NCBI RefSeq assembly: GCF_004010195.1
Contig: NC_057760.1
Coordinates: forward strand, 1,734,215 to 1,798,214
Reading direction: 5' to 3'
DNA from: Chiloscyllium plagiosum
Lineage: Eukaryota
DNA: 64,000 nucleotides
The notes beneath the pieces were generated by a model. The model was given only the letters and a program-made list of their open reading frames with translations, searched no databases and was not told where the DNA came from. Both the position numbers and the translations under genes were made by a program. Of this stretch, positions 3,783 to 62,436 are shown piece by piece (positions within the stretch are counted from its first letter, which is position 1; the number at the start of each line of letters is the position of its first letter).

Positions 3783-3907
3783 GGTAAAAACAAATGACTG
3801 CAGATGCTGGAAACCAGATTTTGGATTCGTGGTGCTGGAAGAGCACAGCAGTTCAGGCAGCTCCTCAGATGCTGCCTGAACTGCTGTGCTCTTCCAGCAC
3901 CACTAAT
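3783..3907. mobile_element. Palindromic Penelope-terminus-derived element, centre deleted
   Basis: Inverted arms GTGGTGCTGGAAGAGCACAGCAGTTCAGGCAGC; 14-bp TSD CCATATTCTGATAA at 3769-3782 and 3908-3921. Confidence 0.8.
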
Positions 3908-3949
3908 CCATATTCTGATAATAAATTTTGAAAAGAAAAACAACTTCAA

Positions 3950-9496: not shown

Positions 9497-11420
9497 CTAA
9501 AAGCATACCAGCAGAGTACACAGACACAGGGTTAGCAGATAGGAGACAAGTCTACTATTGACTATTCCACAGCAAATTGAGGGGTAGGGGAGTGACGTAA
9601 GGGTAGCTGATCTAACAGATCCATGAATTGCCCAGCCTTTTCCTCAAGGCTTGTGCTGAAAATGGTTCAATTTTAGAAAGCTTTCTACGGCAGTGCTTCT
9701 CAGAGCTTTCCTACAGATCATGTGCATTTGGGGTGCTCACATCACAAACAAGGCAGGAGTAAGGAACTGGGAATAGGTTTTGTTCTTGCCAATGGCCCCT
9801 AATCCTGAAAGCAGACACAGGTTGAGCCTCAGCTCCAATGCATGCCCATCCTCCATTCCAGAGGCCAATCTACAAATTCGGAAGAAAGAAAAAAAGGGTT
9901 AGGGGCCAATCACAGTTAAATCAGATTCTGGTCATTTAGCCCCATGAGGCCACACAAGCTGTACAATAGATCACAGCTTGCTGCCCTTACTTAAACAATT
10001 ATTGATTCCAGGTAATTGATTCTGCTTTTGCTGGTGGGCGGGGAGAAAAATTATCAAGTTGAAGGGGGAACCTGGTATTTTGTGCATAAATACTGGACCC
10101 AACAGAGGCTGCAGGCAGACAGATCGGCATATAACACAATTACTTTTTTTTTCAAACATTAAAATACCTTCATTTCTAAAGTTCCTTTCAATACCACAAA
10201 ATCCCAAAAGGTACATTAGAACCAATGGAGGACAGTTCAAATGTCGTCACTGTTGTAACATAGGAAACAATGCAGCCAATTTGCAAACATCAAGTTTCTA
10301 CATACAGAAATGAGTGTTTCCAGTGTTGCCCTGGGACACAGAGCAGGCTACCCACTCTTTAATAATACTGTGCGACAATTTTCATCCACCTATTGGAGTA
10401 GATAGGATCTCAGTTTCACATCGCACCCAAAAGATAGCACCTCCAACAGTAAGGATGGAAAACACAATTAGTGATAGACAGGTAGGGGGCTGGAAGAACA
10501 CAGCAAGCTAGCCAGCATCAGGAGGAACAGTCAACGTTTCTGGTGTAACCCTTCTTTCACAGGCTGTCTGTGTGGATTATTTGCTAAAGCCCTTAGGTGG
10601 GAGCTAAATCCACAATCTTCTAACACGGAGACAGGAGCATGTTTCCATTAGGCAAGAGTGACACTGTGGATGTTCTTTAATTAACCTTCTCTGGCATGTA
10701 AGGAAACATCTTTGGAGAAGACAAGAACTGAAACTTCTGACCCAGAGGTAGGGACACTACTGCTCTGTCACAAGACCCTTTTCACAGCATTATTGTTGGG
10801 CTCTTGATTACTAGCTCTGGGACATTATCACCTTCCCAAAGTGGACCCTGTATACTGGGAGTGAAAATTCTCCAGCAGGGTGCAGGCTTGTATCATCACA
10901 ACATCCTTAGAAAGAAGTGTACCTTGCAGAAATAGGCAAAATGGGAAGTAGAGTCATAGACATTCACCAAGGATCCTTAGATAGCACCTGTCAGACCCAC
11001 GACCACTTCCATCTAGAAGAACAAGGGCAGCAGGTACTTGGGAAAACCACCTGCAAGACCCGCTCCAAGCCACTCATCACCCTAACTTGGAAATATACCA
11101 CTGTTTCTTCACAGTCATTGGGTCAAAACCTTGGAATTCCCTCCCTGCCGGCATTGTGGGTCACCCCACAACAAATGGACAGCAGCAATTCAAGAAGGCA
11201 GCTCACCATCACCTTCTCAAGGGCAAATAGGCATAGGCTATCAATGTTGGCCAGCCAGTGACGCCCAAGTCCCACAAATGATTTTTTTAACATTTTGTTT
11301 AAAAAGTCATATTTATCAGCTTATGACCTACTTATCTATTTCTTTAGCATGCTTTGTTCTAACTTATGGCCTACAACTCGGGTTGACAAGGATTGAACCC
11401 ACAGCAGGAAGACACCTTAC

Positions 11421-11520
11421 CGTTTCGCCTCCTCCAAGTGACAGAGGTACTCGTAGGCAATGTGCTGCCGTCTACGCTCGTCCATCTCCTCTGCGGTGAG
11501 GCGTCCAGTCTCCACAGCAT
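11421..11520 (-). CDS. IQGAP3: IQGAP3 exon 2 ([33 protein letters not shown])
   Basis: Hallmark IQGAP N-terminal motif [26 protein letters not shown]; tttgatag acceptor, gtaagg donor; 100 bp. Confidence 0.95.
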
Positions 11521-11580
11521 CTATCAAAAGGCAGAGATCCAAAAATTCACTCTGACAGAAACGCACCAACAACAACCCAA

Positions 11581-12145
11581 GTACAGGACACTGGTTAGGC
11601 CACTGCTGGAATATTGCGTGCAATTCTGGTCTCCTTCCTATCAGAAAGATGTTGTGAAACTTGAAAGGGTTCAGAAAAGATTTACAAGGATGTTGCCAGG
11701 GTTGGAGGATTTGAGCTACAGGGAGAGGCTGAACAGGCTGGGGTTGGTTTCCCTGGAACGTCGGAGGCTGAGAGGTGACCTTAGAGGTTTATAAAATAAT
11801 GAGGGGCATGGATAGGGTAAATAGACAAAGTCTTTTCCCTGGGGTGGGGAGTCCAGAACTTGAGGGCATAGGTTTAGGGTGAGAGGGAAAAGATATAAAA
11901 GAGACCCAAGGGGCAACCTTTTCACACACAGGGTGGTACATTATGGAATGAGCTGCCAGAGGATGTGGTGGAGGCTGGTACAATTGCAACATTTAAGCGG
12001 TATTTGGATGGGTATATGAATAGGAAGGGTTTGGAGGGATATGGACTGGGTGCTGGCAGGTGGGACTAGATTGGGTTGGGATATCTGGTCGGCATGGACG
12101 GGTTGGACCAAAGGGTCTGTTCCCGTGCTGTACATCTCTATGACT
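11581..12145 (+). mobile_element. CR1/HER1 LINE 3' end, ~60 bp from the IQGAP3 exon 2 acceptor
   Basis: [18 protein letters not shown]...[15 protein letters not shown]. Confidence 0.9.
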
Positions 12146-13039: not shown

Positions 13040-16000
13040 TAGGCAGCCCACTCAAAGGCAGATAAGGTTAAAGATAATCCAAAAAGATTCTACAAGTACA
13101 TGAAGTGCAAGACAGCAACGAGAGAGAGTAAGACTCCTTAAAGATCAACTAGATCATCTTTGTGTTGAACCTCAGGAGTCGGGAGAGATGTTAAATGAAT
13201 ATTTCACATCAGTTTTCACTGTGGAGAAAGAAATGGAGGCTAGAGAAATCAGAAATAAATATTGGTGTTTTGAAAACAGCTCATATTACAGAAGAGGAAA
13301 TGCTGGAGGGGTCAGAAAATATAAAAGTTGATAAATCTCCAGGACCTGATCAAGTCTATTCCAGCATGCTGTGGGAAGTTAAAGAGCAAATTGTGGGACT
13401 CTAGCAGAAATCTTTGTATCACCTATAAACATGAGTGAAGTACCGGAGGGTGGCTAATGCTATAACATTGTTTAAGAAAGGCTGCAAGGAGAAACTTGAC
13501 TGAGTTTTTCATTGAGTAACTAAAAAGACTGATGATTTGGAGGTGCCGGTGTTGGACTGGGGTGTACAAAGTTAAAAATCACACAAACACCCGGTTATAA
13601 TCTAACAGGTTTATTTGGAAGCACTAGCTTTTGGAGCACTGCTCCTTCATCAGGTAGTTATGGAGTACAGGATTGTACAACAGAATTTATAGTAAATGTT
13701 TACAGGGTGATATAACTGAAATGATATATTGAAAAAGACCTGGATTGTTTGTTAAGTGTCTCATCTTTTAGAATTACCACATTGGTTTCAGTTCTTTCAT
13801 ATGCAAATCCCAGAACTTTTTTTTTTTTAAAAAGTTACATTCTCAAGTGAACTTTAATAATAGGTGCCATGTCAGCTCAGATAATGAATTGAAGATGTGA
13901 GGTAAAAGTCTGTCTGTCTGTCTGTGCCCAAAATTCAGACATTCTATTTCTAAAAAAGGATTTACAATCTCTTACATCAATTCATGCAATTTTTGAGAAA
14001 AATAAAATGTAATTCTGCAAGTACAAATTCACCCACAAACTTGTGTGGATGTGTGTGCATGTAGGGGAGTGTGTGTGGGACTAGGAGTGTCGGTGTGAGT
14101 GTAAAGGGGCAAAAGTCTGTGCACGCACGTGTCTGTGTGCACACGTGTGGTGCAATGGGGTCACCTGTCGTGTGACATGAACCCAAGGTCTTGGTTGAGG
14201 CCATCCCCATGGGTACTGTACTTGGCCATCAGCCTCTGATTGGTCACTTTACATTGTTGCCTGTCCCGAAGTCCGCCTTGGAGAATGGTCACCCGAAGGT
14301 CTGAGGCCGAATGTCCCAGACCGCTGAAGTGTTCCCCGACAGGGAGGGAACACTTCTGGCTGGTGATTGTTGTGCAGTGTCCATTCGTCCGTTTCATTGA
14401 CCTCTGCTCGGTTTCGCCAATGTACCATGCCTCAAGGCATCCTTGCCTGCAGCATATGAGATAGACAACAATGGCCAAGTCACACAAGTACCTGCTACGT
14501 ACATAGTGGGTAGTGTCCCCACATGTAATGGTTGTATCCGTGTCAACACTGACACGTCTTGCAGCATCTGCTGTGACAGAGTTGTATGGTGTTGTCTTGA
14601 AGGTCAGGCAGTTTGCTGCAAACAATGATCTGTTTCAGGTTTGATGGTTGTTTAAAGGTGATAAGTGGAGGCGTGGGGAAGGTCTTGGCGAGGTGCTCAT
14701 CCTCATTGATAAGGTGTTGCAGGCTGCGAAGGACATGCCGTAATTTTTCGGCTCCTGGGAAGTACTGGACAACAAAGGGTACCCTGTCGGTTGCAGCTCA
14801 TGTCTGTCTCCTGAGGAAGTCATAGCCCATCAGAACTGGCGATCGATGAGTTGAGCATCGTATCCCGTTCTTATGAGGACAGCCTTAAATTCTTCCAAAC
14901 GCCCGTCACATTCCTCCTCATCTGAACAGATTCTGTGTATGCTAGAGTTGTCCATAGGAGATGGCTGTTTAATGAGTTTCGGGTGGAAGCTAGAGAAGTG
15001 TAGCATCATGAGGTTATCCATTTACTTGGCTTTTAGTAAAAGCTTTGACAACATTCTGCATGGTAGACCAACTAGTAAAGTTAGGTCATTTGGGATTCAG
15101 GGAGAAATTGCCAATTGGATACAAAATTGGCTTTACAGTAGGAGACAGAGGGTGGGTGGTTGAGGGTTTTTTGCAGATGGAGACCTGTGATCAGTGGTGT
15201 TACACAGGGATCAGTACTGGGTCCCCTTTAGTTTGTCATTTACATAAATGATTTGGATGAGAATAAAAGAGGTATAGTAAGTAAATTTGCAGATGACACT
15301 GAACTAGTTAAAATTACAAACAGACCTGGATCAATTAGGTCAATGGGCTGGAGGAGTGGCAGATGGAGCTTAATTTGGATAAATGCAAGGTATTGCATTT
15401 TGTTAATATAATCAAGAACAGGACTTTTACAATTAATGTTTGGGCCCTAGGTAGTATTGTGGAACAGAGACCTAGGGGTTCAGGTACGTGATTCTTTGAA
15501 ATTTGCGTCACAGATAGATAGTGTGGTTAAGAAGGTGTTTAGCACACTTGCCTTCATTGCTCAAACCTTTGAGTATCGAAGTTGGGACGTGATGATGAGG
15601 TTGTACAAGACGCTGGTGAAGCCTCTTCTGGAGTACCTTGTCCAGTTCTGGTCGCCCTGTTATACGAAGGATATTTACAAAATTGGAGACGGGAAAGGGT
15701 TCAGAAAAGATGTACCAGGATGTTGCCGGGAATGGAGGGTTTGAGAGTCAAAAATAGACAGGAAAGGTTGGGACTTTTCTCACTGGAGTGGAGGAGGTTG
15801 AGGTGTGTCCTTTTATGGAGGTTTATAAAATCATGAGGGGTAGAAACAAGCTGAATAGCAGGTGTCTTTTCCCTCGGGTGGGGGATTTCAAAACAAGGGG
15901 GTATATTTTTAAGAAGATAGATTTAAAAAAGGACATGAGGGGCAACTTTTTTTCCCTATACAGAGTGGTTCGTGTGTGGAATAAACTGCCAGAGATAATG

Positions 16001-16165: not shown

Positions 16166-17819
16166 GCTTTGACAGCTTCCTGTGGGAGAAAATTCCACAT
16201 TCTCTCCACACTCTGGGCTCCTCCTGAATCCCCAATGGATTTATTCGCAACTATTTCATGTAAAAGGTCTCAAGCTTTTATCATTCTCACAGATGGTAAC
16301 AAGATTTCTAACCTCAAAATCACTTTTTTTGAGATGCTACACAAGTCACAATTGAGGTGCAAATTAGCTCCGTTGGAGAAGTGAGGTTATAAACCCAACA
16401 TAAAGGTGAGAGAAGGTTTATTCTCTGTTCAGACACACTGCACGAAAACTATGCATATAAATGTCATTTGACAAAGATCACGAATTAGCAAGAAAAATTA
16501 GCTATTTCAAGGAATCACTCTGCCCAGAAATGCACAATGAAACTGCCTGTTTGAGGCATTACCAAAAATAGCAGCAGGGAATTGAATTCCACTGAGTTTA
16601 ACTGAAAGCAGAATCTGAATCCTTAAAATAATCAAATATAAAGCATTTGCCAAAAGTCAATATTGACACACTGGGAGGAGTGCAGGGCTGCTAATTAAAC
16701 ACTGCAAGAGTTTATGAAAAAGACTATAGATGTTGCAATGCTTAATTTTTTTTTAATGAAATATGCAAAAAAAGTCAATAAATGTATTTTATTTAATATA
16801 AAATAACAAAATTTCAACAGATTATGGGGTCCAAGATTTAAAGCACACACAATTAGATTTTATTTACAGTCTCTGTCAGTGATTTCAATCCATACCTTAA
16901 AAAATATATCTGCGCTCACATGCACTGGAGAGGGCACTGAGAAAACATATCAGGTTGTTGCCCAGTCTGGAATGATTCAACTATAAAGGGAAATTAAAAA
17001 GCTGGGGTTGTACTTCTGAGAACAGAGAAGGATGTGTATAGGAGACCTGATTGAAGTGTAGGGGGACATGTTCATATGTCACATCTTTCAAATTACACTT
17101 CTGTACAGGATCACATTCATAAGTACAAGCATCCTGAATTCAGACCTTTGTAAATCAAGGTCCCCGTGTACAAAGTTATGAGGGGTACAGATAGGGTAGA
17201 TAGAAAGAATCATTTCCCCACTCTATGACTCTAGGTAAGTACTTGAATAAGGAAGGAAATGGACCAGGCGCAGGCAGCTAGGACTAGTTCAATTTGGGAT
17301 TATGGTCAGCATGGAGTGGTTGGACCAAAAGTCTGTTTCCAATACTCTAACTCTTCATGACACTATGCACTTAGAAGGGAGAACAATAACTGTGCATAGG
17401 TTTGAGAGAGGCAGGAGGGGAACTGAGGGAAATTTTTTTTCACCCCCCCACCCCCGCCCCCGCCCCCGAGAATGTGATGGCATCAGCAAATCACCATCTG
17501 AAAGTGTGCAAGAGGCAGTAACCATCACAATACTTTAGTAGCATCTTTGTGATCAAGTAAAGTGCCACAGTCTACAAGGCTACGGGTCAAGTACTGGAAA
17601 ATGTGATCAGATGGGTGCTCGACAGGAAGGGTCACAATGGGCTGAAGGTCCTCTTTCCATGCTGTAAAACTCTGCAAACTTGCCCATTTTTAACAGGGGA
17701 TAAAACTCTCCATACTCCTTTCACAAAGCACAGGGCATCTCTCTTAGAAGTGGCTTCACAGAGTGGCACCACCACCTCAGTTTGACATCCCATTTGAAAG
17801 ATGGCACCGCCAACCATGC

Positions 17820-18039
17820 TCTGGATCAGTGGTGCTGGAAGAGCACAGCAATTCAGGCAGCATCCGAGGACAGGCAAAAATCGACGTTTCGGGCAAAAGC
17901 CCTTCATCAGGAAGCCTGATGAAGGGCTTTTGCCCAAAACGTCGATTTTGAAGTTCCTTGGATGCTGCCTGAATTGCTGTGCTCTTCCAGCACCACTGAT
18001 CCAGAATCTGGTTTCCAGCATCTGCAGTCATTGTTTTTA
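17820..18039. mobile_element. Palindromic Penelope-derived element with two back-to-back hammerhead cores
   Basis: ~90-bp inverted arms; 15-bp TSD CACCGCCAACCATGC at 17805-17819 and 18040-18054. Confidence 0.85.
17883..17910 (-). ncRNA. Minimal hammerhead ribozyme core, sense to IQGAP3 intron 1
   Basis: Minus strand CTGATGA-A-GGGC-TTTT-GCCC-GAAA-C-GTC: intact CUGANGA/GAAA boxes, 4-bp stem II, GUC triplet; activity untested. Confidence 0.55.
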
Positions 18040-18849
18040 CACCGCCAACCATGCGGCTCTCCCACAGCACTGCACTAGGAGCGTTAGACTGGATTTTGTT
18101 CTCAAGTCCCTGCAGTAGGGCCAAGGCAAGGGGGGGGCGGGGGGGGGGGGTGATTAAAGTTCTTCCTCGGTTGAGCCTTCAACAGCAAACCTCAGCCCAA
18201 ATACATAGGTGAGCAGTGGAGAATGTGCAGCCATTCAACCCATCTTGAGAACCTAGTCGAAAGGATGGCAGAAACGGGTTCGGCAAAGAAGGGAAAGGTG
18301 TAAACAAGGAGAAACCCGAAGGACCACAGGGCTTTGGGGGGAGGACGAAAGAGTTAGGCAAACTTGGGGTGGTGGGCTCCATCCAAGAGATAGCATGGAT
18401 GCGACAGTCCGAATGGCTTCCTCAACAAAATCAACCTTGCCTCAGCTCCAAGATTGGAGTTTCATACCACACTATGGCAAAACACAAAGCAAAAGAAAAA
18501 AAAAAGAGAGAAAAAAAATTAACTTGCAACTCAGGGAAGGAAAAGAGAACAAAAGAACAAAACTGGAGTCACCAACTTTTAAGTTTTGTCAAGCGCCTTC
18601 CTGGAGGGGTGGCAAGACATAAAGAGACGTCCTTAGTCCTGAACGTCCAAGACAAAACAGAAATAACAATTTCTGGCTTTTGAATGTTTATAATTATTTT
18701 TGGAGATTGAATAATGGGCAGTTGGGGACAGAGTTAGCACAAATCCTTTGCAGAATGAAGCCACTGCCTGGTCACATTATTATTATTATTTTGCACTGAC
18801 CTTTTTTGCAGTGTACACCTTTAATACATTGTCTGAGCTGAGATGTCAC

Positions 18850-19172
18850 TCTTTTTTTTTAAATAAAAGCCTGAAGCTATGTCGAGAATGCGACTTAAAA
18901 GTTCTGGGATTTACATACGAAACCTTCAGCCCATTATAAAAGATGAAAGACTTAACAGCAACCTTAGGTTTATTCAATATGTCATCTTAATTGCATGACA
19001 CTGTGATATTTTGCTACAAATTCTGTGTCTTATGATCCTGCCCCACTAGCTACCTGATGAAGCTACCTAGTGCACCAGCTGAAAGCTAGTGCTTCCAAAT
19101 AAACCTGTTGGACTATAACCTGGTGTTGGGTGATTTTTTTAACTTTGTCCAACACTGGACCCTCCACATCAA
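18850..19172 (+). mobile_element. Penelope-like 3' terminus (same family as 13533-13860 and 1-56, 51165-51260, 57030-57110, 62310-62430)
   Basis: CCTGATGA...GAAAGCTAGTGCTTCCAAATAAACCTGTTGGACTATAACCTGGTG. Confidence 0.75.
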
Positions 19173-19221
19173 GAACAAGTATTGCAGAGGTTAAAGAGAC
19201 ATTCGTATTTTTCACACTTAC

Positions 19222-19264
19222 ATCCACCCTGGCGCTTTCCGCCCGAATCCACTTCGCTCCCCAT
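19222..19264 (-). CDS. IQGAP3: IQGAP3 coding exon 1 (MGSEVDSGGKRQGG + 1 nt)
   Basis: ATG at 19264 inside the CpG island; GTAAGT donor at 19221; phase 1 joins exon 2 to give ...[21 protein letters not shown], matching the short IQGAP first exon. Confidence 0.8.
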
Positions 19265-19599
19265 CGCCCTCCTGGCAACTTCGCTCAATTACTTTCCGTT
19301 TTCCGCCTCACGAAACTTTAATTTATATTCCCCTCAAGGAGCCAACCGCCGCCGCGGACGACGACTCTCGCTTCCGAAAATCCCGCCAGAATTCCAACGG
19401 CCATCGGCAGGCCAGGCGGCGCGGGGCCCGCCGGGAGTTGTAGTCCCCCGATTTTTCCACCACCACCCCACCCCCACCCCAGAAGGGGAAGCGGGACTAC
19501 AGTTCCCAAAGGGCGCTGCGCACTTGGCCGGCCCCGACCTGCCTGCCCGGGGCGCGGGACGTCTCGCCAGGGGTGGGCGGCTTCTCCGGTTGCCATGAC

Positions 19600-19756
19600 G
19601 ACGGAGCAACACAAGATCCAGGGACATGTTGGCAACTGGACACCTTGCAGCCATAGACTGGGGATCAGCTCCTGCAAAAGAGTGGCTTCTCCATGGATTG
19701 CCTTCTACCCCGGGAGACGGGGCATTTAAAACAAACTGCAGAATTCTTATCTTGAG
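19600..19756 (+). other. TTC24: Putative non-coding first exon of TTC24 (5' boundary unknown)
   Basis: Strong donor GAG|GTAAGG at 19756/19757 at the right edge of the CpG island; TTC24 ATG exon has an acceptor 24 nt before its ATG, so an upstream exon is expected. Confidence 0.5.
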
Positions 19757-20334
19757 GTAAGGCAGGAAGAAGGAATCTTAAATGGTTATTATTTCTTGCT
19801 TCCCCCCCCTCTCCTTGTCTTTGCCATCTTGTGTTTCATTCACTCTTGGAACATGGGCATTGCTGGTTGGGCCCAGCATTTGTTGTGCCTGTCCCTGTAT
19901 GCCCCCTTGAGAAGATGGTGGTGAGCCACCTTCTTGAACCACTGCAGCCCCTGTTCTGTCCACAATGCCCTTAACCGGCGGGAATTTGACCCGGCGACGC
20001 TGAAGGAACCATCGATATGTTTCCAAGTCAGGATGCTGTGTGTGGGACTCGGAGGAGAAATTGCAGGGGGTGGCGTTCCCATGCCCTCGTCCTTCCAGGT
20101 GGAAGTGGTCATGGATTGGGAAGCTGCTGTCCGAGGATCTTTGGTGAATTCCTGCAGTGCAATTTTAGGATAGTGCACACTGCTGCTCCTGAGCATCAGT
20201 GATGGAAGGATGCGCCACCAATCAAGCAGGGTCTACTTTGTCCTGGATGGTGTTGAGCATCTTGAGAATTGTTGGATCTGCCCCCATCCGGGCAAGTGGG
20301 GAGTGTTTCCTCATCGGACCTCCTCCCACCCTGC

Positions 20335-20700
20335 CCCCTGGAAAAATGCCATCCCATATTCCCAATTCCTTCGTCCCCGCCGCATCTGCTCCTCATTTCC
20401 CCTCCCCCCACCTTGTCTCAGTCAAATCCATCAAACTCAGCACCGCCTTCCTAACCTGCAATCTTCTTCCGGACCTCTCCGCCCCCACCCCACTCCGGCC
20501 TATCACCCTCACCTTGACCTCCTCCCACCTATCGCATTTCCAACGCCCCTCCCCCAAGTCCCCCATCCCTACCTTTTATCTTAGCCTGCTGGACACACTT
20601 TCCTCATTCCTGAACAAGAGCTTGTGCCCGAAACGTCGATACTCCTGTTCCTTGGATGCTGCCTGACCTACTGCGCTTTTCCAGCAACACATTTTCAGCA
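20335..20700 (+). mobile_element. Penelope-like fragment (RT C-terminal remnant joined to the terminal arm)
   Basis: KNAIPYSQFLRPRRICS motif followed by CCCGAAACGTCGAT...GGATGCTGCCTGACC...CCAGCAACACATTTTCAGC, the same arm as the palindromic elements. Confidence 0.7.
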
Positions 20701-20713
20701 GTATTTCCACATA

Positions 20714-21045
20714 GATTAGATTCCCTACAGATGGGATTCCCTACAGTGTGGAAACAGGCCCTTCAGCCCAACCAGTCCACACCGACCCTCCAAAGAGTAA
20801 CCCACCCAGACCCATTTCCCTCTAACTAATGCACCTAGCACTATGGGGCAATTTAGCGTGGCCAATTCACCGAAACTGCACATCTTTGGACTGTGGGAGG
20901 AAACCGGAGCACCCGGAGGAAAGCCACACAGACACAGGGGGAAAATGTGCAAATTCCACACAGACAGTAGCCCGAGGCTGGAATCGAACCTGGGACCCTG
21001 GTGCTGTGAGGCAGCAGTGCTAACCACTGAGCCACCGTGCTGCCC
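20714..21045 (-). mobile_element. V-SINE (HE1-like)
   Basis: Full head-core-tail on the minus strand. Confidence 0.88.
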
Positions 21046-21061
21046 CCATCATACTCCTGAC

Positions 21062-24000
21062 TTAGAACATAGAACGGTACAGGCCCTTCGGCCTTCGATG
21101 TTTTTATCCTACATTAAGATCAAACTAACCCACATACCCTTCGTTTTACTATCATCCATCAGAGTGTCGCTTAAAAGTCCCTAATGTATCTGACTCTACT
21201 ACCACTGCTGGCAGTGCATTCCACACACCCACTACTCTCTGTGTAAAGAACCTATCTCTAACATCTCCCCTAAACCTTCCTCCAATCACCTTAAAATTAT
21301 GCCTCCTTGTGATAGCCATTTCCATCCTGGGAAAATGTCTCTGGCTATCCACTCTACCTATACCTCTCATCATCATGTACACCTCTATCAAGTTGCCTCT
21401 CATCCTTCTTCACTCCAATGAGAGAAACCCCAGCTCCCTCGACCTTTCTTCATAAGACATGCCTTCCAGGCCAGGCAGCATCCTAGTAAATCTCCTTTGC
21501 ACCCTCTCTAAAGCTTCCAAATGCTTCCTATAATGAGGCGACCAGAACTGAACATGTGTGGTCTAACCAGGGCTCTACAGAGCTGCATTTGAGAGTGTGT
21601 TGCTGGGAAAGCACAGCAGGTCAGCCAGCAACACACTCTCACCTCTGATCTCCAGCATCTGCAGTCCTCACTTTCTACAGAGCTGCAGCATAACCTCGCG
21701 GGGGCTCTTAAACTCTATCCCCCTACCTAATGAAAGCCAACACACCATATACCTTCTTAACCCTATCAACTTGGGTGGCAAGATTGAGGGATCTATGGAC
21801 ATGGACCCCAAGATCCCTCTGTTCCTCCACACTACCAAGAATCCTGCCTTTAATTGGGCGGCACGGTGGCACAGTGGTTAGCACTGCTGCCTCACAGCGC
21901 CAGAGACCCGGGTTCGATTCCCGACTCAGGCGACTGACTGTGTGGAGTTTGCACATTCTCCCCGTGTCTGCGTGGGTTTCCTCCGGGTGCTCCGGTTTCC
22001 TCCCACAGTCCAAAGATGTGCGGGTCAGGTGAATTGGCCATACTAAATTGCCCGTAGTGTTAGGTTAAAGGGGTAAATGTAGGGGTAGGGGTATGGGTGG
22101 GTTACGCTTCGGCGGGTCAGTGTGGACTTGTTGGGCCGAAGGGCCTGTTTCCACACTGTAAGTAATCTAATCTAATCTAAAACCCTGTAATCTGCACTGA
22201 ACTTCGACCTTCCAAAATGAATCGCTTCACACTTCTCCAGGTTGAACTCCATCTGCCATTTCTCAACCCAGCTCTGCATTCTGTTAATGTCCTGTTGCAT
22301 CCGACAACAGCCCCCCTCACAATTCACAACTCTACCAACCTTCGTGTCATCGGCAAACTTACTAACCCACCCTTCCACTTCCTCATCCAAGTCATTTATA
22401 AAAAAGCATAACCTCGCGGCTCTTAAACTCTATCCCCCTACCTAATGAAAGCCAACACACCATACACCTTCTTAACCCTATCAACTTTGGGTGGCAAGAT
22501 TGAGGGATCTATGGACATGGACCCCAAGATCCCTCTGTTCCTCCACACTACCAAGAATCCTGCCTTTAACCCTGTAATCTGCACTGAAGTTCGACCTTCC
22601 AAATGAATCACTTCACACTTCTCCAGGTTGAACTCCATCTGCCATTTCTCAACCCAGCTCTGCATTCTGTTAACGTCCTGTTGCATCCGACAACAGCCCC
22701 CCTCACAATTCACAACTCTACCAACCTTCGTGTCATCGGCAAACTTACTAACCCACCCTTCCACTTCCTCATCCAAGTCATTTATAAAAATCACAAGAAG
22801 CAGAGGTCCCAAAACAGATCCCTGTGGAACACCACTGGTCACTAAGCTCCAGGCTGAATACTTTCCATCTACTAACACCCTCTGTATTTTATGAGCCTGC
22901 CAATTCTGTATCCAGGCAGCCAAATTTCCCTGTATCCCATGCCTCCTTACTTTTTGAATGAACCTACCATGGGGAACCTCATCATTGTCTATCCCCACGT
23001 TTTTCAAAATTTCCAGCACATCCTCTTTCTTAACATCAATCTGTTCGAGCTTATTAGCCTGTTTCATGCTGTCCTCACAAACGACAAGGTCCCTCTCACT
23101 AGTGAATACTGAAGCAAAGTATTCATTAAGGACCGCCCCTACTTCCTCTGACTCCAGGCACAAGTTCCCTCCATTATCTCTGATTGGCCCTACCCTCAGT
23201 CTGGCCATCTTCTTGTTCCTCACATAAGTGTAGAATGCCTTGGGGTTTTCCTTAATCCTACCCACCAAGGCTTTTTCGTGTCCCCTTCTACCTCTTCTAA
23301 GTTCCTTCTTGGCTACCTTGTAACCCTCTAGAGCCCTGACTGACCCTTGCCTCCTCAACTTTAAGTAAGCTTCCTTCTTCCTCTTGACAAGATGTTCCAC
23401 ATCCCTTGTCACCCAAGGTTCCTTCACCCTACCATCCCTTCCTTGCCTCAGTGGGACAAACCTATTTGGCACTCTCAGCAAGTGCTCCCTAAACAACCTC
23501 CACATTTCTGTCGTGCATTTCTCTGAGAATATGTGTTCCCAATTTATGCTCCACAATTCCTGCCTAGTAGTATTGTAATCCCGCCTCCCCTGATTAAATA
23601 CTTCCCCATACCGTCTGCTCCTATCCCTCTCTATGATTATAGTAAAGGTCAGGGAGTTGTGATGACTATCACCAAAATGCTGTCCCACCGAGAGATCTGA
23701 CACCTGACCTCATTCGTTGCCAAGCACCAAATCCAGTAAGGCCTCCCCTCCAGTCAGCCTATCTACATACTGCGTCGGGAATCTTTCCTGGATACACCTG
23801 ACAAAGTCTGCTCCATCCAAACTATTTGCACTGAGGAGGTTTCAATCATTATTAGGGAAGTTGAAGTCACCCAAGACAACAACCCTGTTACTTTAACACT
23901 TTTCCAAAATCTGCCTCTCAATCTGCTCTTCCGTGCTATTGGAGGTGGGGATGGGGTCTATAGAATACTCCCAATAAAGCGACTGCTCCCTTCCTGTTTC

Positions 24001-27284: not shown

Positions 27285-27494
27285 AGGAGAAAGTGAGGAC
27301 TGCAGACGCTGGAGATCAGAGCTGAAAATGTGTTGCTGGAAAAGCGCAGCAGGTCAGGCAGCATCCAAGGAGCAGGAGAATCGACGTTTCGGGCATGAGC
27401 CCTTCTTCAGGAAAGGCTCATGCCCGAAACGTCAATTCTCCTGCTCCTTGGATGCTGCCTGACCTGCTGCGCTTTTCCAGCAACACATTTTCAG
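27285..27494. mobile_element. Palindromic Penelope-derived element inside a CR1 3' fragment
   Basis: 15-bp TSD TACTTAAGGAACTGG at 27270-27284 and 27495-27509; intact hammerhead core CTGAAGA-AGGGCTCATGCCC-GAAA-CGTC on the minus strand at 27383-27410. Confidence 0.85.
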
Positions 27495-27886
27495 TACTTA
27501 AGGAACTGGGCAAGTCAAATGCTGGGAGGAGAGTCTAGGACCAGAGGGCATAGTCTCAGAATTAAGGGGCACAAACTTCAGACCGAGATGAGGAGGAATT
27601 TCTTGCCTCAGAGGGTTGAGATTCTTTGGAGTTCCTTGCAACAGAGAGCTGTGGGGGCAGAGTCCTTGTGCATGTTTAAAGCTGATTTAAGGCCAAGTTG
27701 GGCAATTAAGGGTTACAGGGAAAGTAGACTAAGGAATGTCGGATCAGCCATGATCACATTGAATGATAGATCGAGCTCAAGGGGCAGGATGGCCTGCTCC
27801 TGTTCCTGGTCAAACTGATCTTATTGCCCTCGTAGAGCTAATGCTTTGTTCACTCTCAACAGGCGCAGTCCTGGGGCATTGGACCA

Positions 27887-28625
27887 ATGTCTTCCGACGT
27901 GGCGATGTCAGATGAGCCGTCAGCTGCCGTCCAAGGCCAGCGGGAAAACGGGAAGGGCCCGAGGAGGAAGAAACATCAGAACGGTGGGGAGGCTACAGAG
28001 AGGCGGCGGGACGTGTCAGAAATCCAGGCCCAAATCGAGAGCCTGACCAGGGCCGGGAGCCAGGCCCTGGCTCAGGAGCGTTGCGGGGAGGCCCTGACCG
28101 CCTTCAAGAAGGCCTTCCTGGCTTCGCTGGACATAACAGAGCAGCAGGTGCAGAGGGCCTGTGCTTTCAACCTGGGTGCGGCCTACGTGGCCTCTGGTCG
28201 CCTCGCCAAGGGCGTGGACTTCCTGCACCGCTCGCAGCCGGACAAGGGCGGGGAGAGGCAGGGCGACCTGCACTTCAATCTGGGCCTGGCCCACGAGGGG
28301 CTGGGAGACTCGCCGGTGGCCATTGAGCACTACCAGCAGGCCCTGGCCCACTACCAGAGCCGGCAGGCCCAGGGCGAGGCGGACACCCACATGAAGCTGG
28401 CTGGTTGCCGGGCCCGGGCTGGGGAGCTGGGCCAAGCCGGCCGCTGCTTCCGCAGGGCGGGCCTGGCCTACCAGCAGGCCGGGAGCCCGGATCTGGCCGC
28501 CGTGGCCCTCAACGAGGCCGCCTGCCACATGCTGCAGTGCCGGCATTTCACCGCCGGGGAGATCACGGAGGTGCTGAACGAGTGCCGGACCATCTGCGCC
28601 AACATCCAGAACAAGGCCCTCCTCG
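27887..28625 (+). CDS. TTC24: TTC24 first coding exon (exon starts 27863), TPR repeats
   Basis: IESLTRAG..AL...RACAFNLGAAYV..GDLHFNLGLAHEGLG resembles vertebrate TTC24; caacag acceptor at 27862, G|GTGAGT donor; head-to-head with IQGAP3 as in human 1q22. Confidence 0.9.
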
Positions 28626-28663
28626 GTGAGTGTGCTTTCCATGGCATCGCTGTTATAAAGTCC

Positions 28664-34296: not shown

Positions 34297-35738
34297 GTAA
34301 GGAGAGGGGGTGCGGGGCTTTGGAAGAGGCTGCCGCTTTTGAGGTTGATGGGTGTATGGTGTTGGCGGTCAATAGCGCGGAGGGTGGTGAGTTCAAAACC
34401 TGGGGCAACGTTGTCTGGGAACAGAACTGAGGCCCAGGTCAATGATGATCGGATTGGATGTCGGAACTGACCTGGCCCCCTGTAAATAAGAACTGGAACA
34501 GGAGTAGGCCATTCAGCCCTTCGAGTGCTCCGCCATTCAACACAATCATGGCCGATCTTATCTCAGCCTCAATTCCACTCTGCCTTCTTTTCATGATGAT
34601 GTGGGCATCACTGGCTAGGCCAGCATTTATTGCCCATCCCTAATTGCCCAGAGGGCAGTTAAGAGTCAACCACGTGGCTGTGGGTCTGGAGTCACGTGAA
34701 GGCCAGACCCAGGTAAGGATGGTAGTTTCCTTCCCAATTGAACCAAACAATTGGCAATGGATTTGTGGTCACTACTTGACTCTTAATCCTGGATTTTTAT
34801 TGAATTTGAATTGTGTCATCTGCCATAATAGGATTCGAACCTGGGTGTCTGGATTAAAGGTGTCGAGAGTGTGGTGCTGGAAAAGCGCAGCAGGTCAGGC
34901 AGCATCAACTTGGAGAAGGTGAGGACTGCAGATGCTGGAGGTCAGAGTCGAGAGTGTGGTGCTGGAAAAGCACCTCGCTTTCTCCTCATTGATGCTGCCT
35001 GACCGGCTGCGCTTTTCCAGCACCACACTCTCGACTCTGATCTCCAGCATCCACAGTCCTCACTTTCTCCTCTCTGGGTTAACAGTCCGGTGGTAACACC
35101 ACTACGCCATCACCTCCCCATAATGTCTCCTCCTTAAATTCATTCAGTGTTCCTTCATCCACTGCACTCTGGAATTCCACAAATTTACAACCCTTTTAAG
35201 AGAAGTAATTCTTTCTCATCTCAGTTTTAGAACAAAGGGCAACAGATTTAAAACAAAGATCTTTCACTTCAAATTGCTTACATGAGGAAACGTCATCTCT
35301 GTGTCTATTTGTCAATCCCTTTTAGCATCTTATAAGACCATAAGAAACAGGTACTGGGCTGCTCGTCCATTACAGCCTGCTCTGCCAGCCATTAGGATCA
35401 CGACTGATGTGACACTCCTCATGTCCACTTTTCTGTGTTTCCCCCATAACCCTTGAAGCCTCTTCTAATGCAAACTAACATCATCGTAGACCCAGAGGGC
35501 TGCCCTTTCATTCGAGAGAGTTCACTGGTAGTGAGTTTAACCTGAGGTTCACCACACCTCAGGCAAGGGGTGAGGTTGGGAAGGCGAGAACTGCATGGAG
35601 ATCTCAACTGGTGCAGGAATTGGAACACCAGCTTCACTCTGCTCTGCAAAGCAGCCGTCCAACCAACTGAACTAACTGGCCCTCCCTTATACACCTCAAT
35701 TAGATCAATGGAGAAGTGATGGCTGTTAATGCAGAGAC

Positions 35739-35942
35739 GAAAAATGTGGCGCTGGAAAAGCACAGCAGGTCGGGCAGCATCCAAGGAGCAGGACAGTCAA
35801 CATTCCAGGCATAACCCCTTCATCAGGCTCGAGACATCAACTCTCCTGCTTCTCAGATGCTGCCTGACCCTGCTGTGCTTTTCCAGCACCACGCTGTTCG
35901 ACTCTGATCTCCAGCATCTGCAGTCCCTCACTTTCTCCTGCC
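35739..35942. mobile_element. Palindromic Penelope-derived element inside a SINE
   Basis: 11-bp TSD AATGCAGAGAC at 35728-35738 and 35943-35953; inverted arms. Confidence 0.8.
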
Positions 35943-36118: not shown

Positions 36119-36339
36119 CGAGAGCGCGGTGCTGGAAAAGCGCAGCAGGTCAGGCAGCATCCGAGGAGCAGGAAAATCGACGGTTCGGGCAAAAGTCCTT
36201 CATCAGGAATTCCTGATGAAGGGCTTTTGCCCAAACCGTCGATTCTCCTGCTCCTCGGATGCTGCCTGACCTGCTGCGCTTTTCCAGCACCGCGCTCTCG
36301 ACTCTAATCTCCAGCATCTGCAGTCCTCAGTTTCGCCTC
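36119..36339. mobile_element. Palindromic Penelope-derived element
   Basis: 12-bp TSD CTGCCATTCCTT at 36107-36118 and 36340-36351; perfect centre CTTCATCAGGAATTCCTGATGAAG. Confidence 0.85.
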
Positions 36340-37170: not shown

Positions 37171-37357
37171 GTGAGAAGGCAAAGATCAAGGAAAGCAGAG
37201 CGTGGAGATTACGGGAGCGGTATACACTCTGTGAGTGTACAGAATGGGGTATACATGAGCAGTAGTTTAGATCAGAGTGGTGCTGGAAAAGAACAGCAGG
37301 TCAGGCAGCATCCGAGGAGCAGGAAAATCGACGTTTTGGGCAAAAGCCTTTCATCAG

Positions 37358-40300: not shown

Positions 40301-41045
40301 GGTGTACAGGAACAGTACACAGTGTGTGGGAATACAGAATGGGGTGTACAGGAACAGTACACAGTGTGTGGGAATACAGAATGGGGTGTACAGGAACAGT
40401 ACACAGTGTGTGGGAATACAGAATGGGGTGTACAGGAACAGTACACAGTGTGTGGGAATACAGAATGGGGTGTACAGGAACAGTACACAGTGTGTGGGGA
40501 TACAGAATGGGGAGTACAGGAACAGTACACAGTGTGTGGGGATACAGAATGGGGAGTACAGGAACAGTACACAGTGTGTGGGGATACAGAATGGGGAGTA
40601 CAGGAACAGGACACAGTGGGTGGGGATACAGAATGGGGAGTACAGGAACAGTACACAGTGTGTGGGGATACAGAATGGGGAGTACAGGAACAGTACACAG
40701 TGTGTGGGGATACACAATGGGGAGTTCAGAAACAGTACACAGTGTGTGGCATATAGAATGGGGAGTGCAGGTACAGTACACAGTGTGAATACAGAATGAG
40801 GTGTACAGGAACAGTACACAGTGTGTGGCATACAGAATAGGGAGTGCAGGTACAGTACACAGTGTGAATACAGAATGGAGTGTACAGGAACAGTACACAG
40901 TGTGTGGGAATACAGAATGGGGTGTACAGGAACAGTACACTGTGGGGATACAGAATGGGGAGTACAGGAACTGTATTCTGTGGGATACAGAATGGAGTGT
41001 ACAGGAACAGTACACCGTGTGTGGGGATACAGAATGGTGAGTACA
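37358..41045. repeat. 42-bp minisatellite (GTACACAGTGTGTGGGAATACAGAATGGGGTGTACAGGAACA), ~88 units
   Basis: Direct inspection; homogeneous core ~38420-40495, degenerate edges. Confidence 0.97.
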
Positions 41046-41154
41046 GGCTGGTATTCATCGCCATTGCCCCACAACATCCCCTTAGAGGTCCGGAATCTAT
41101 TTTCTGAAGGAGAATGGTGGCTGTACCGACAGCGAAAAGGTGTTGCAGACAGTT

Positions 41155-45598: not shown

Positions 45599-47294
45599 CT
45601 CCTTAGTATTAAGTAAAGAAATGAAGCTGAAAGTTCAACCATGGCAGCACCAGGAGGTGGTGAAGTTGACATTTCAGGTGTTACACTATCAGCACAAGTG
45701 GCAGCAGTGGGATTCAAACCCTTGCCTCCTTAGAGACTGGAACCTGAAATCAGTACCTTAGGCCACTTGGCCACGCTCTCAGACTCTGAAGAGGTGTTAC
45801 ACCTGAAACATCAACTTCTCCACCTCCTGATGCTGTCTGGCCTGCTGTGTTCTTCCAGCCTCCTGCCTGTCTACTTTGGATTCCAGCATCTGTGCGATTT
45901 TTTTTTTGTCTCTTCAAGTTCAACCATTGCAGTCTTGCTGAAGTGCTTAGTCATGCTGTGCCCCCACTTCCTGCAAGGGCCCGATCCCCATGCTGGCTCA
46001 ATCTTCCCCAGCTCTCGTCATCGCTGCAGATGCCGCAGGGGGTCCTCCATCACCACGTTGGATCTCAGACCGTCCAGGCCTGATCCAGCCGCCATCCTCG
46101 GTCCACACGCCAGGCACCGTGAACCCGCCAAGAGGTGGGGGTGAGCCTCCTTCTTGAACCTCTGCAGTGGTGGAGGATCAGCCACAGAGCCATTCGGGAG
46201 GAAGTTCCGGGATCTTTGGCTCCAGCAACGCTGAAGGGACGGCCAATTCTCATTCGGAATGGTGGGGTTTGGAGGGGAACCTGCTCAGAATGGTGTATCT
46301 GGTGTCCTGTCATTTCAGATGGTCATAGTTGTTCGTTTGGAAGGTGCTGTCTGAGGAGCCTCAGCAAGTCACTGCAGTGCATCTTGGATACGCTGCTGGT
46401 GGAGGGAGTGATTAGATTCCACTACAGTGTGGCAACAGGCCCTTCAGCCCAACCAGTCCACGCCAACTCTCTGAAGAGTAGCCCATCCAGACACATTTCC
46501 CTCTGCCTAATGCACCTAACACTATGGGCAATTTAGCATGGTCAATTCGCCCTGAACTGCATATCTTTGGACTGTGGGAGGGAACCGGAGCACCCAGAGG
46601 AAACCCACGCAGATGGGGGGGGGGCAGAATGTGCAAACTCCACACAGACAGTTGCCCCAAGGCTGGAATCGAACCCGGGTCCCTGGCGCTGTGAGGCAGC
46701 AATGGCACCGTGCCGCCCCAATGGATGTCTGTGGTGCCAATCCAGTGGGGGCTGCTTTGTCCCTGGATGGTGTCGAGATTCCCCAGTGTTGCTGGAGCTG
46801 CACCCATCCAGACAAGTGGGGAGTATTCCCTCACACTCCTGACTCATGCCTTGCTGGCTTTGGCGAGGCGTGAGCCAAGGCACGCACTGTAGAATTCCAA
46901 GCCTCTGACCTGCTCTTGCAGCCTCTTACAGGGCTGGCCTGGTTCAGTGTCTGATTGATGGACGTAGGGACCGAAGGTTGAAGGACCAGCAAAGAAAAGA
47001 TATGTATTTATGTAGCACCTTTCACAACCACAGAAGATCCCAATGTGTTTTACAACCAATGAAGCGCATTTTCTGATGTGGGCTCAGTGTTGTATTGTCG
47101 GAAATGTGGCAGGTATTTGTGCACAGCATGTTCCCACAAACAGTCATAATGACCCATGTCATCTATCTTTATTAATGTGGGGTGAGGAATAAGTTTTATT
47201 CCCAGACACTGGGGAGAACTGTCTGATGGAGAACATTTCGCCCTCACCCCACTTTAAAACAACAGCATCTGATATTTTGCATTAAAATGGACAG

Positions 47295-51101: not shown

Positions 51102-51316
51102 GTAAGTAAGGTGTTACACACTCCCGAGGTACGGAAGAATTTGGAGTTTAGCTGTGGAGGGGCCACTGTTGGACTGGGGTGGACAAAGTTAAAAATCACA
51201 CACCAGGTTATAGTCCAACAGGTTTATTTGGAAGCACTAGCTTTTGGAGCACTGCTCCTAACTAGGAGTTGTGTGACTTCTAACTTTGGAGTTTAGGGAA
51301 GATGCGTTGTCCTGGA

Positions 51317-52703: not shown

Positions 52704-52734
52704 CTTGAAACCCCTGGTGGCTTCTCCACCGACA

Positions 52735-53215
52735 CCATCCCCGCCCCATCCACTGCACCTTCCCTGTAACCGCAGAAGGTGCAACACCTGCCCCTTACAC
52801 TCCTCGCTGTTCACCATCCAAGGGCCTGAGCCAGGTGAAGCAACATTTCACCTGTACCTCCTCTGATCTTGTGTATTGTATTCACTGCACCTAATGCAAA
52901 TTGGAGAAACCAATCGCAGACTGGGTGATCGCTTTGCAGGACTCTGACCTTCCCATAGCCGGTCACTTTAACACAGCGTCCTGCTCGCATGGCCACATGT
53001 CTGTTCTCAGTGGAGAAGGCTGGAAGAACATAGCAGGCCGGGCAGCATCAGCTGTGAAGAAGTCAATGTTTCGGCTGTGACCCTTCTCTAGTCCTGAACA
53101 AGGGTTACACCTGAAATGTCGACCACTCCACCTCCTGAAGCTGCCTGGCTTGCTGTGTTCTTCCAGCCGCCTGCTTGTCTACCTTGGATTCCAGCATCTG
53201 CAGTTTTTGTTTTCT
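52735..53215 (+). mobile_element. Penelope-like GIY-YIG fragment followed by an inverted terminal arm pair; related fragment at ~55895-56350 (-)
   Basis: VKQHFTCTSSDLVYCIHC..IGETNRRLGDRF; palindrome GGCTGGAAGAACA...TGTTCTTCCAGCC. Confidence 0.75.
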
Positions 53216-53219
53216 CTAA

Positions 53220-54369: not shown

Positions 54370-54556
54370 GGTCTGGATAGAGACAAATGCTGGAACCCAA
54401 GGTAGACAGGCAGGGGGCTGGAAGAACACAGAGAGCCAGGCAGCGTCAGGAGGTGTGAAGTAGGCATTTCAGGCCTTAAAGAAGGATTACACCCGAAACG
54501 TCGACTTCTCCACCTCCTGACGCTGCCTGGCCTGCTGTGTTCTTCCAGCCCCCTGC
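54370..54556. mobile_element. Palindromic Penelope-derived element (third arm family)
   Basis: 11-bp TSD CTGTCCTTTCA at 54359-54369 and 54557-54567; CACCCGAAACGTC core. Confidence 0.7.
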
Positions 54557-54835
54557 CTGTCCTTTCAAGCCTGGCAGGTAGACTCACCAGTGTTCTGCCG
54601 TTCTCACGTTCTGATCACTTAATCTGAACGTTCAACATGTTTTCTCCATCAGCACCCTGCACCCTACCCCTCCACAATTCACTTCCGCTTGCTCTCTCTG
54701 CATGGGGTGCTGTCTGACCCTCTGTAATCTCCAGCATTTGTTGTTTTCAGGAGGGATTCCGTGATTCTATGATTCAGTACTGGTTCCTCCCAGTTCAGTT
54801 ACACACGACATGTCTCACAAGGGCCAGCTGTGAAA

Positions 54836-57748: not shown

Positions 57749-59225
57749 TGGGGCGGCGCAGTGACTCAGCGGTTCTGGTTTCCTCCCACAATCCAAAAAT
57801 GTGCAGGTTAGGGTGGATTGGCCATGCTAAATTGTCCCATAGTGCCCAGGGATGTGCAGGTTAGGGTGGATTGGCCATGCTAAATTGTCCTGTAGTGTCC
57901 AGGAATGTGCAGGTTAGGATGGATTGGCCATGCTAAATTGTCCCTAAAAATGTGTTGCTGGAAAAGCGCAGCAGGTCGGGCAGCATCCAAGGAGCAGGAG
58001 AATCGACGTTTCAGGCATGAGCCCTTCTTCAGGGATGCTCCTTGGATGCTGTCCGACCTGCTGCGCTTTTCCAGCAACACATTTTCAGCTCTGATCTCCA
58101 GCATCTGCAGACCTCACTTTCTCCATGCTAAATTGTCCTGTAGTACCCAGGGATGTGCAGGTTAGGTGCATTAGTCAGGGGTAAATATCTGATAATAGGA
58201 CAGGGAAATGGGTCTGGCTGGGTTAGTCTTCGCTGAAAATGTGTTGCTGGAAAAGCGCAGCAGGTCGGGCAGCATCCAGGGAACAGGAGAAACGTCAATT
58301 CTCCTGTTCCCTGGATGCTGCCTGACCTGCTGCGCTTTTCCAGCAACACATTTTCAGCTCTGATCTCCAGCATCTGTAGACCTCACTTTCTCCCTGGGTT
58401 ACTCTTCGGAGGACCGGTGTTACGACACAAGATAAACCCCTCTGCTAATTTAAACCAGCCACACAGAAAAGATTCACCTCAGGCTATAATCTGTTAAAAT
58501 TCAAGAGGCAAAGGACTATCCCAGAGGTCACTACTTAAAGTAAAAATTTACAACTTTATCCTTTAATTCCAACAGAGAATATTAAAACCAACAACTATTT
58601 ACAACTTCTTTCTCTTCAACCTACTTGTTACCTCCCACTCTATAATACTAGTCTGATAAAAATTCTCAATTAAGATTTACAAAAAAGAATCATGTTTCGA
58701 AACCAGGCAGCTTTGCAAATTCTCCTTTCTAGATTTTCTCTGTAAATGCTCTCCCTGTCAGCCTCGATGTCCTGCTGCACGTACTCCCCACAGACCGGTA
58801 TCTTTCAGAGAGCTTTTCAGCTAGCAGTCTACATTTGTTGGTCCTTGGCAGTTCTCCCCCCAACTGTTCAAAATGTCTGGTTTTATACCCCAATACATCG
58901 GATTGTTTTATTGATTTTAATATCAGCAAAATACTAAATTCAAATTTGATTGGAGTTTGGTATCTTGGGGCACGGCCAATCTCGGGGCAGAATTTAAACT
59001 GATTGGCTGAATTTGAATTTGCTTTTGTTTCATGGTAACCTATCTGCTGCTATTTGTTTCGATGAGGTGTGACATTGTTGCCTTGTTCAGGACTCTCTGT
59101 GCTTTGTCAGTCCTGGCTAGCTTTTCAACTCGCTTAAAGGTACAGTCCACCTCTACACCTTCATAACAGCCAGTGTGAACTCACAAGGCGAAAGGGCCTG
59201 TTTCCACAGTGAAGGGATTCTATGA
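57749..59225 (+). mobile_element. V-SINE fragmented by two palindromic elements (57944-58122, 58233-58393) and a solo LTR
   Basis: TSDs CCATGCTAAATTGTCC (16 bp) and CTGGGTTA(G/C)TCTTCG (15 bp); SINE tail resumes at 59169. Confidence 0.8.
58418..59168. mobile_element. Probable solo LTR (~751 bp)
   Basis: TGTTACGA...TCATAACA: TG..CA ends with short inverted termini; clean insertion in a SINE. Confidence 0.65.
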
Positions 59226-62300: not shown

Positions 62301-62436
62301 TCTTCAGATTTCATCAGGAGCAGCGCTCCAAAAGTTAGTGCTTCCAAATAAATCTGTTGGGCTATAACCTGGTGTTATATGATTTTTAAATTTTGTCCAC
62401 CTCAGTCCAACATCGGCACCTCCACCTCAGACTTAT

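Follow-up and report, generated by a model that had tools for sequence, protein, structure and literature searches.

Penelope-like elements (PLEs) that carry an endonuclease have been described as inserting with inverted pseudo-long terminal repeats (pLTRs), a one-sided tail of 30 to 40 bp, and a target-site duplication (TSD) (PMC3846280; PMC8557442; PMC8969392), and the origin of the inverted repeats and of the tail has been described as undefined (PMC8557442). Hammerhead pairs lying 100 to 700 bp apart on opposite strands are known from metazoan PLEs and in 2014 were mostly ascribed to truncated elements (PMC4209133). For one PLE, Poseidon of Anolis carolinensis (PAc), the element's protein cleaves and extends both DNA strands and is predicted to be a dimer; it initiates reverse transcription internally, at two sites that flank the tail, most often 111 to 118 nt into the open reading frame (ORF), and its activity needs RNA up to +172 of the ORF, beyond both start sites (PMC11167929). 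Here we analyze 64,000 nucleotides of Chiloscyllium plagiosum (contig NC_057760.1, positions 1,734,215 to 1,798,214), referred to as the window, whose internal positions serve as coordinates throughout. The window holds many short, palindromic, two-armed inserts made of PLE termini, and these are a real and abundant new example of the known PLE insertion form, not a new element class.

Matching four arm references cut from the window against the whole of it gave 36 arm segments. Among them are 14 head-to-head pairs, or about one two-armed unit per 4 to 5 kb (14 in 64 kb), besides several solo arms. An original prediction had named nine sites as independent insertions, each with one longer and one shorter inverted arm and with direct repeats of its own. 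All nine are head-to-head inserts of 86 to 221 bp, each with one long and one short arm, as had been claimed. Its proposal of at least three arm subfamilies was likewise confirmed: type A occurs at 3783 and 17820, type B at 21588, 27285, 35739, 36119, 57944, and 58233, and type C at 54370, and a fourth, type D, was found in addition. The two arms of a unit are of the same type in every case.

The insert at 17820 illustrates the anatomy (arm positions take the first base of the CUGA box, its C, as +1). Its two 15-bp TSD copies, seen as flanking repeats on the plus strand, lie at 17805..17819 and 18040..18054. Inside the left copy is a short, tail-less, inverted type A arm, aligned from +90 to −3 (17820..17913, minus strand), in which the minimal hammerhead core at 17883..17910 (minus strand) passes the motif test with both boxes and the 4-bp stem II intact. 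The center junction (17911..17915) is made up of three natural upstream bases of the left arm, one unassigned base, and one upstream base of the right arm. There follows the body of a long, sense type A arm, aligned from −1 to +90 (17915..18005, plus strand), with a second minimal core in which the motif test finds G12 changed to A (17916..17943, plus strand), and then a 34-nt PLE tail that only this arm of the unit has (18006..18039, plus strand). The two arms differ at 7 of 92 aligned columns, and 5 of these differences are clustered (17864-17880 versus 17946-17961). A version of the left-arm cluster with one base fewer is common among public contigs (depth 231007/526985 in run X5); the public data used here are contigs and reads of four public runs aligned to 17500-20715.

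The other inserts follow the same plan. The second type A insert (3783..3907; 14-bp TSD) has its tail on the left arm and has lost the hammerhead. The type B inserts lie at 21588..21673 (tail right; 14-bp TSD), 27285..27494 (tail left; 15-bp TSD; one intact core), 35739..35942 (tail right; 11-bp TSD), 36119..36339 (tail right; 12-bp TSD; both arms reaching −4, with a 2-nt overlap), 57944..58122 (16-bp TSD; short arm complete, long arm from +37), and 58233..58393 (tail right; 15-bp TSD with one mismatch). Type C is represented at 54370..54552 (tail left; 15-bp TSD with one mismatch) and, beyond the nine named sites, at 45648..45915 (tail right; 17-bp TSD with one mismatch; about 95 bp of foreign central filler). 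A type D unit, from a different PLE family, occupies 51152..51284 (tail left; 12-bp TSD).

The TSDs establish that the nine named inserts arose independently, as predicted: each has its own repeat of 11 to 16 bp, different from all the others, and with tandem repeats masked a score of at least 11 was reached by only 1 of 1,000 random position pairs. (An unmasked null, 27 of 294, was discarded as inflated by tandem arrays.) A single TSD surrounds both arms in all 10 of the units tabulated, that is, the nine and 45648..45915, with no inner duplication, and the composition of the TSDs is not clearly AT-rich (54.6% versus 51.9%). No TSD scoring at least 11 was found at 20335, 33109, 34858, 53018, 56855, 61247, or 10475, nor at 63431 (9 bp), nor in 5 of a further set of 6 units. 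The original prediction had also pointed to empty sites in relatives, and one was found for the 17820 insert, the only one of the nine so checked. In a related organism (run X14), one 972-bp contig matches 18062-18843 and 17619-17814; 11 letters separate 17814 from 18062 in it, where an empty site with one TSD copy predicts 12; its flanks differ from the window at 46 of 978 positions (4.7%). The clean empty site and the TSD together show that the 17820 insert is specific to its lineage and that its target duplication is genuine, and the insert is younger than the split that the 4.7% flank divergence represents. None of the contigs listed for run X5 spans this site.

Arm asymmetry, TSD length, and center junction were tabulated for the units of the window, and the asymmetry follows a strict rule. 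In each of the 10 TSD-bounded units the outer end of the long arm lies between +120 and +129; that of the short arm lies between +85 and +90 in 8 of them and at +77 and +47 in the two type C units. The two ends thus differ by a tail of about 35 nt. Of the 14 head-to-head pairs, every one carries this tail at a single outer end (left in 4, right in 10), and the same holds for the 10 TSD-bounded units and the type D unit at 51152-51284. If each arm chose its start independently at even odds, simple arithmetic puts the chance of 11 one-tailed units among 11 TSD-bounded ones at about 0.0005, a figure to be read with the caveat that 9 of the 11 had been picked beforehand as asymmetric, although the arm search of the window gave no exception. 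The arms are limited inward as well, although their inner ends vary: in 12 of 12 other core-bearing arms, the match to the natural upstream sequence of the type B copy at 20609 extends for only 0 to 4 bases. In five units (3783, 21588, 35739, 54370, and 57944) the short arm extends inward beyond the long one, which has the tail; each arm therefore holds sequence that the other lacks, and neither simply copies its partner.

The centers, by contrast with the arms, are individual. All 10 tabulated centers differ, including those of 27285, 57944, and 58233, which are type B units with arms 94 to 100% alike. By reading, the arms are joined with 1 to 5 nt of microhomology in 36119, 27285, 58233, 35739, 3783, and 21588 and with filler in 17820, 57944, 54370, and 45648 (about 95 bp), and the center of 36119 is a perfect palindrome. 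The filler of the 45648 unit (45686-45780), possibly a template jump at the junction, is tRNA-like by eye; neither ARAGORN nor Rfam calls a tRNA there. In public contigs, 15 joints are listed and a further 919 rows exist; among those listed, 12 leave 17904-17913 and go to 11 different places. Loose contig ends also pile up at 17913 in three runs (490, 465, and 692 contigs), with an agreement beyond that point of only 0.34, and because the reference itself departs from the natural sequence at that position and a contig count is a count of distinct forms, the pile-up speaks for many continuations and not for their shares.

Two arm types can be joined directly to PLE coding sequence. A query with a window fragment retrieved 539 proteins at E values up to 0.001; among 8 long relatives scanned for domains, 7 have reverse transcriptase (RT), 5 have GIY-YIG, and 4 have both. 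The best 150 of the 539 match the window at 14173-14940, 20321-20395 (an RT match, 9 proteins), 52811-53005 (32 proteins), and 55871-56360. On the plus strand, 20321..20699 is an internally deleted PLE remnant composed of an RT thumb (20321-20392), a C-rich upstream stretch, and a tail-less type B arm (20609-20699) that follows the RT thumb in sense orientation, in agreement with the prediction that an RT remnant at 20335-20700 ends in this arm type. Another type B copy in public contigs (run X5) bridges the upstream stretch and the arm, and 400 RNA reads run on from 20699 into the tail. At 20392, 213 to 251 contigs per run continue differently (agreement 0.76 to 0.85), which identifies the window copy as the deleted one. 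The contig depth over the RT-thumb bin (20308-20523) is no lower than that of the next bin in X5, so that either long copies are common or the deleted form is itself multi-copy, contig depth not being copy number. For type D, the 3' end of a PLE is preserved in natural order on the minus strand (13533..14940), with an RT-thumb/GIY-YIG ORF (14940-14173), a spacer, and a type D arm with its tail (13657-13533).

The proposal that arms match the ends of autonomous PLEs therefore stands for types B and D, whereas types A and C are connected through likeness to type B. A related arm had also been noted behind the GIY-YIG fragment near 52735, and as a second link this did not hold. The fragment itself is a decayed piece of a PLE (52726..53010, plus strand; 32 proteins, best E value 4e-6), but the arm next to it (53018-53085), which belongs to a type C two-armed unit (53018..53216), is inverted relative to the fragment, and the unit has no TSD; this arm is thus not the natural end of that element and does not link type C to it. 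Pfam detected no RT or GIY-YIG in 11 decayed window fragments, whose identity comes from protein relatives instead, and word-index protein searches with a PLE fragment and with the translation of the 17820 arms gave no match. Viral contigs had no matches to an arm motif, and a look-up of RNA data sets that contain the locus listed none. In a metagenome scan, none of 81 loci aligned over more than 46 bases and only 7 reached 35; these were taken as chance and dropped.

The hammerhead motif on which the original prediction leaned is real, with 6 matches in the window and none in each of 100 shuffles. The back-to-back arrangement claimed for 17820, 27285, and 36119 was found in the first and last of these, where CUGANGA boxes are paired; the right arm of 27285 has no box. 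Both catalytic boxes and the 4-bp stem II are kept in only 3 of 13 arms tested (the left arms of 17820, 27285, and 57944), in a test whose fixed stem register is invalid for two type C arms. Two intact cores never occur together in a unit: G12 is lost from the right core of 17820, both cores of 36119 are altered, and 27285 has one core. The whole 17820 unit folds as a single hairpin (−171 kcal/mol, z score −22.6) in which the opposite-strand cores are buried, and on this model self-cleavage from two-armed units is unlikely. Single arms fold no better than shuffles (z scores −0.13 to 0.55 for five arms), and folding thus gives the hammerhead no support. Rfam returned no window match at the gathering score and no hammerhead match; at 17700-18150 it gave only hairpin matches below that score, weak microRNA ones included. 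The inner limit of the arms at −4 differs from the hammerhead cleavage site (+28). We infer that the cores are passengers in the insertion.

The inserts thus present independent insertion at a stagger of 11 to 17 bp, head-to-head arms with one tail, outer ends near +89 and +125, an inner limit at −4, and unique centers. We think it probable that they are integration products of an endonuclease-bearing PLE in which two cDNAs are primed on both target strands and then joined. The source would be the hammerhead-bearing terminal segment, about 125 nt long, of an autonomous element's RNA, and the unit would be a dead-end product made at insertion. An RT-GIY-YIG protein, probably a dimer, would nick both target strands, and both 3' ends would serve as primers: one cDNA would begin at the distal reverse transcription start site and give the long arm with the tail, and the other would begin at the proximal site and give the short arm. 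Both would run toward the 5' end of the RNA, where transcription possibly starts at −4, or stop early, and they would be joined through 1 to 5 nt of microhomology or filler. Two target 3' ends, with one cDNA from each start site, would give head-to-head arms, one tail, and one TSD around both. By our own count the distal start of the anole element lies about 117 to 124 nt from C3 (PMC11167929), close to the long-arm end observed here.

The first alternative of the original prediction, minimal PLE insertion products, is supported along with the PLE origin itself. Its description of these products as extremely 5'-truncated is probably mistaken for arms reaching the hammerhead edge, whose form suggests run-off to a fixed 5' limit. 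Position −4 is the A of an initiator-like YYANWYY in both upstream sequences tested, an agreement expected by chance at 1.1% per site and noticed post hoc, and complete arms may be run-offs to the transcription start; an internal promoter has been described for Drosophila Penelope (PMC2377424). A stricter form of the proposal, which we put forward tentatively and at somewhat less than even confidence, is coupled integration, in which one RT-endonuclease dimer always pairs a distal start with a proximal one and copies to the initiator-like start at −4. On this reading, the arms of some inserts, 17820 for example, may derive from separate RNA molecules. If true, it would account at one stroke for the inverted pLTRs and for the tail on one side, and the mini-inserts would be its natural read-out. 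The TSD resembles the natural continuation of the short arm at 3908-3917 and 54553-54561 (9 identical bases at 54553), a sequence likeness hinting at primer-template pairing in some events. Two different inserts (34848-35082 and 63415-63536) occupy the same 9- to 10-bp site of the same small repeat, a possible target preference.

Several observations weigh against priming on both strands or against its details. In vitro, the start site of reverse transcription in the anole system is the same for both strands (PMC11167929), and nothing shown yet enforces one tail per insert. The RNA reads show no pile-up of beginnings or ends that would support a start at −4, in a poly(A) single-cell library of which 2% was used; reads at the arms cover both strands, and 98% run on into unlike sequence. 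Types A and C are tied to PLEs by their likeness to type B alone, type B is linked to RT by one internally deleted copy, and the material contains no full-length element, only short, decayed RT fragments being present in the window. For four type A and C arms, the type B upstream reference serves as no more than a proxy. Of 12 pairs, only 8 have arms that are each other's nearest or tied nearest relatives, the 4 exceptions being diverged pairs. Some joints are multi-copy: among those listed, single rows have depths of 165 to 2300, and the deepest, in one X14 contig, compares with 40 to 46 for single-copy flanks and is absent from X5 and X9. Centers in which both arms are complete to the hammerhead edge would escape the joint listing. 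Finally, palindrome centers may be deleted after insertion, which would also explain why each is unique.

Of the competing accounts, fold-back survives best, and we regard it as unlikely. A single cDNA or antisense RNA would fold at the self-complementary hammerhead region and be copied, and later deletions would reshape the center. Self-priming has been proposed for PLE inverted junctions (PMC3846280), the perfect palindrome at the center of 36119 suits it, and the arms share private variants in 36119 (3 differences, versus 10 to 12 to the next arm) and in 58233 (1 versus 2 to 3), although these variants equally fit a single RNA. However, a copy cannot exceed its template, and the mutually private sequence in 5 of 10 units would call for extra deletions. 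The fixed end of the short arm also matches the second reverse transcription start site, and the 17820 arms differ by their 5-base cluster despite the youth of the insert.

Less probable still is a self-replicating, non-autonomous palindromic family, in which the whole hairpin would be transcribed and retrotransposed by PLE proteins. This is the second alternative of the original prediction, a MITE-like (miniature inverted-repeat transposable element) class, against which unique center junctions had been named beforehand as counterevidence; that class is not upheld, with 10 of 10 centers different, near-identical type B copies included, and some multi-copy joints remaining. Those joints favor replication, non-autonomous PLE derivatives are known (MRC1, animal retrozymes, and pLTR-driven mobilization in trans), and 10 different centers are compatible with many masters or with deletion after insertion. 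Yet a common center is what membership in such a family would need, and the listed joints that leave 17904-17913 scatter to nearly as many places as there are joints. The transcript would be one −171 kcal/mol hairpin and, by analogy with the anole element, would probably be without the RNA downstream of the tail that activity requires. Copying of whole hairpins also predicts ragged short-arm ends rather than ends at +85 to +90.

A two-step origin, in which a solo arm would insert first and acquire its partner afterward by re-targeting, by repair of a hairpin-capped break, or by gene conversion, seems to us very improbable. Solo arms do exist (10475, 33109, 37274, and 63431), as do nested and composite units (34858, 56855, and 61247), and the anole protein is able to cut its own terminal sequence (PMC11167929), but one TSD encloses both arms in every tabulated unit, arm types match throughout, and the related organism has a clean empty site. 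A DNA transposon (MITE or foldback) with captured PLE sequence, suggested by the short, inverted-repeat shape with TSDs, is scarcely credible, given variable TSDs of 11 to 17 bp where a MITE needs a fixed length, one end 35 nt longer than the other where it needs symmetric terminal inverted repeats, no fixed terminal bases, and arms that are PLE ends.

The surroundings can be described briefly. By reading, the inserts lie in non-coding DNA, and many vertebrate-type repeats are present. A TPR-repeat exon lies at 27842-28630 (plus strand), and minus-strand exons at 151-519 and 11420-11788 presumably belong to a gene resembling IQGAP, for which Pfam gave nothing useful. A 3.7-kb tandem array (37274-41050) begins exactly where a solo inverted arm has its hammerhead edge. 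The 21 bp that precede one GIY-YIG fragment (52705-52725) recur in inverted orientation 2.9 kb away, behind another fragment of similar kind (55853-55873). Type D copies occur at 13-56, 18897-19151, 51155-51284, 57028-57140, and 62316-62430; type D RNA reads turn to poly(A) at 19115 (422 reads) and 19118 (649 reads), directly behind an AATAAA that the arm contains, and 19097-19118 is a possible mobile polyadenylation site.

As data, the inserts are valuable because about 200 bp display the cut and the outer and inner ends of both arms, and because the rule of one tail per unit and the constant inner limit allow an open mechanism to be tested, with two-strand priming set against fold-back. Such hairpins may be mistaken for MITEs or microRNA precursors. 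In the literature searched, with most subscription papers outside its scope, no publication was found on such palindromes in sharks or linking two-strand priming to inverted PLE inserts.

Two-strand priming has a parallel in LINE-1 twin priming, in which two target 3' ends prime two cDNAs that are joined with microhomology. There the inverted piece derives from a different, upstream part of the RNA, whereas here a single segment would give both arms, with two fixed starts. Non-LTR (long terminal repeat) retrozymes are, like these inserts, non-coding, hammerhead-bearing, and PLE-derived (bioRxiv 10.64898/2026.07.22.740005; PMC7229834), but they are head-to-tail tandems, whereas the inserts are head-to-head, single, and TSD-bounded; assignment to the retrozymes, which needs head-to-tail units each with a type I hammerhead, was rejected, no unit having two intact cores. 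The minimal hammerheads of metazoan PLEs have the same core, with an extra base before stem II, a G-C first pair, and no real helix III, but their pairs are far more widely spaced than the 5 to 6 bp seen here, where most cores are mutated (PMC4209133). With PAc the inserts would share the two reverse transcription starts that bound the tail and a similar distance to the hammerhead; that study, made in vitro with a full-length protein, does not discuss inverted or palindromic inserts (PMC11167929). The closest match remains the inverted-pLTR units of endonuclease-bearing PLEs, with the same head-to-head pLTRs, tail at one end, TSD, and palindromic junction, here reduced to two arms without an ORF and with TSDs of 11 to 17 bp instead of the 8 to 10 bp of rotifer units. 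The inserts belong with these products: their terminal sequence is continuous with a PLE RT/GIY-YIG ORF for types B and D, and they combine a tail at one end, head-to-head 5'-shortened pLTRs, a minimal hammerhead, and a TSD with, for one insert, its empty site.

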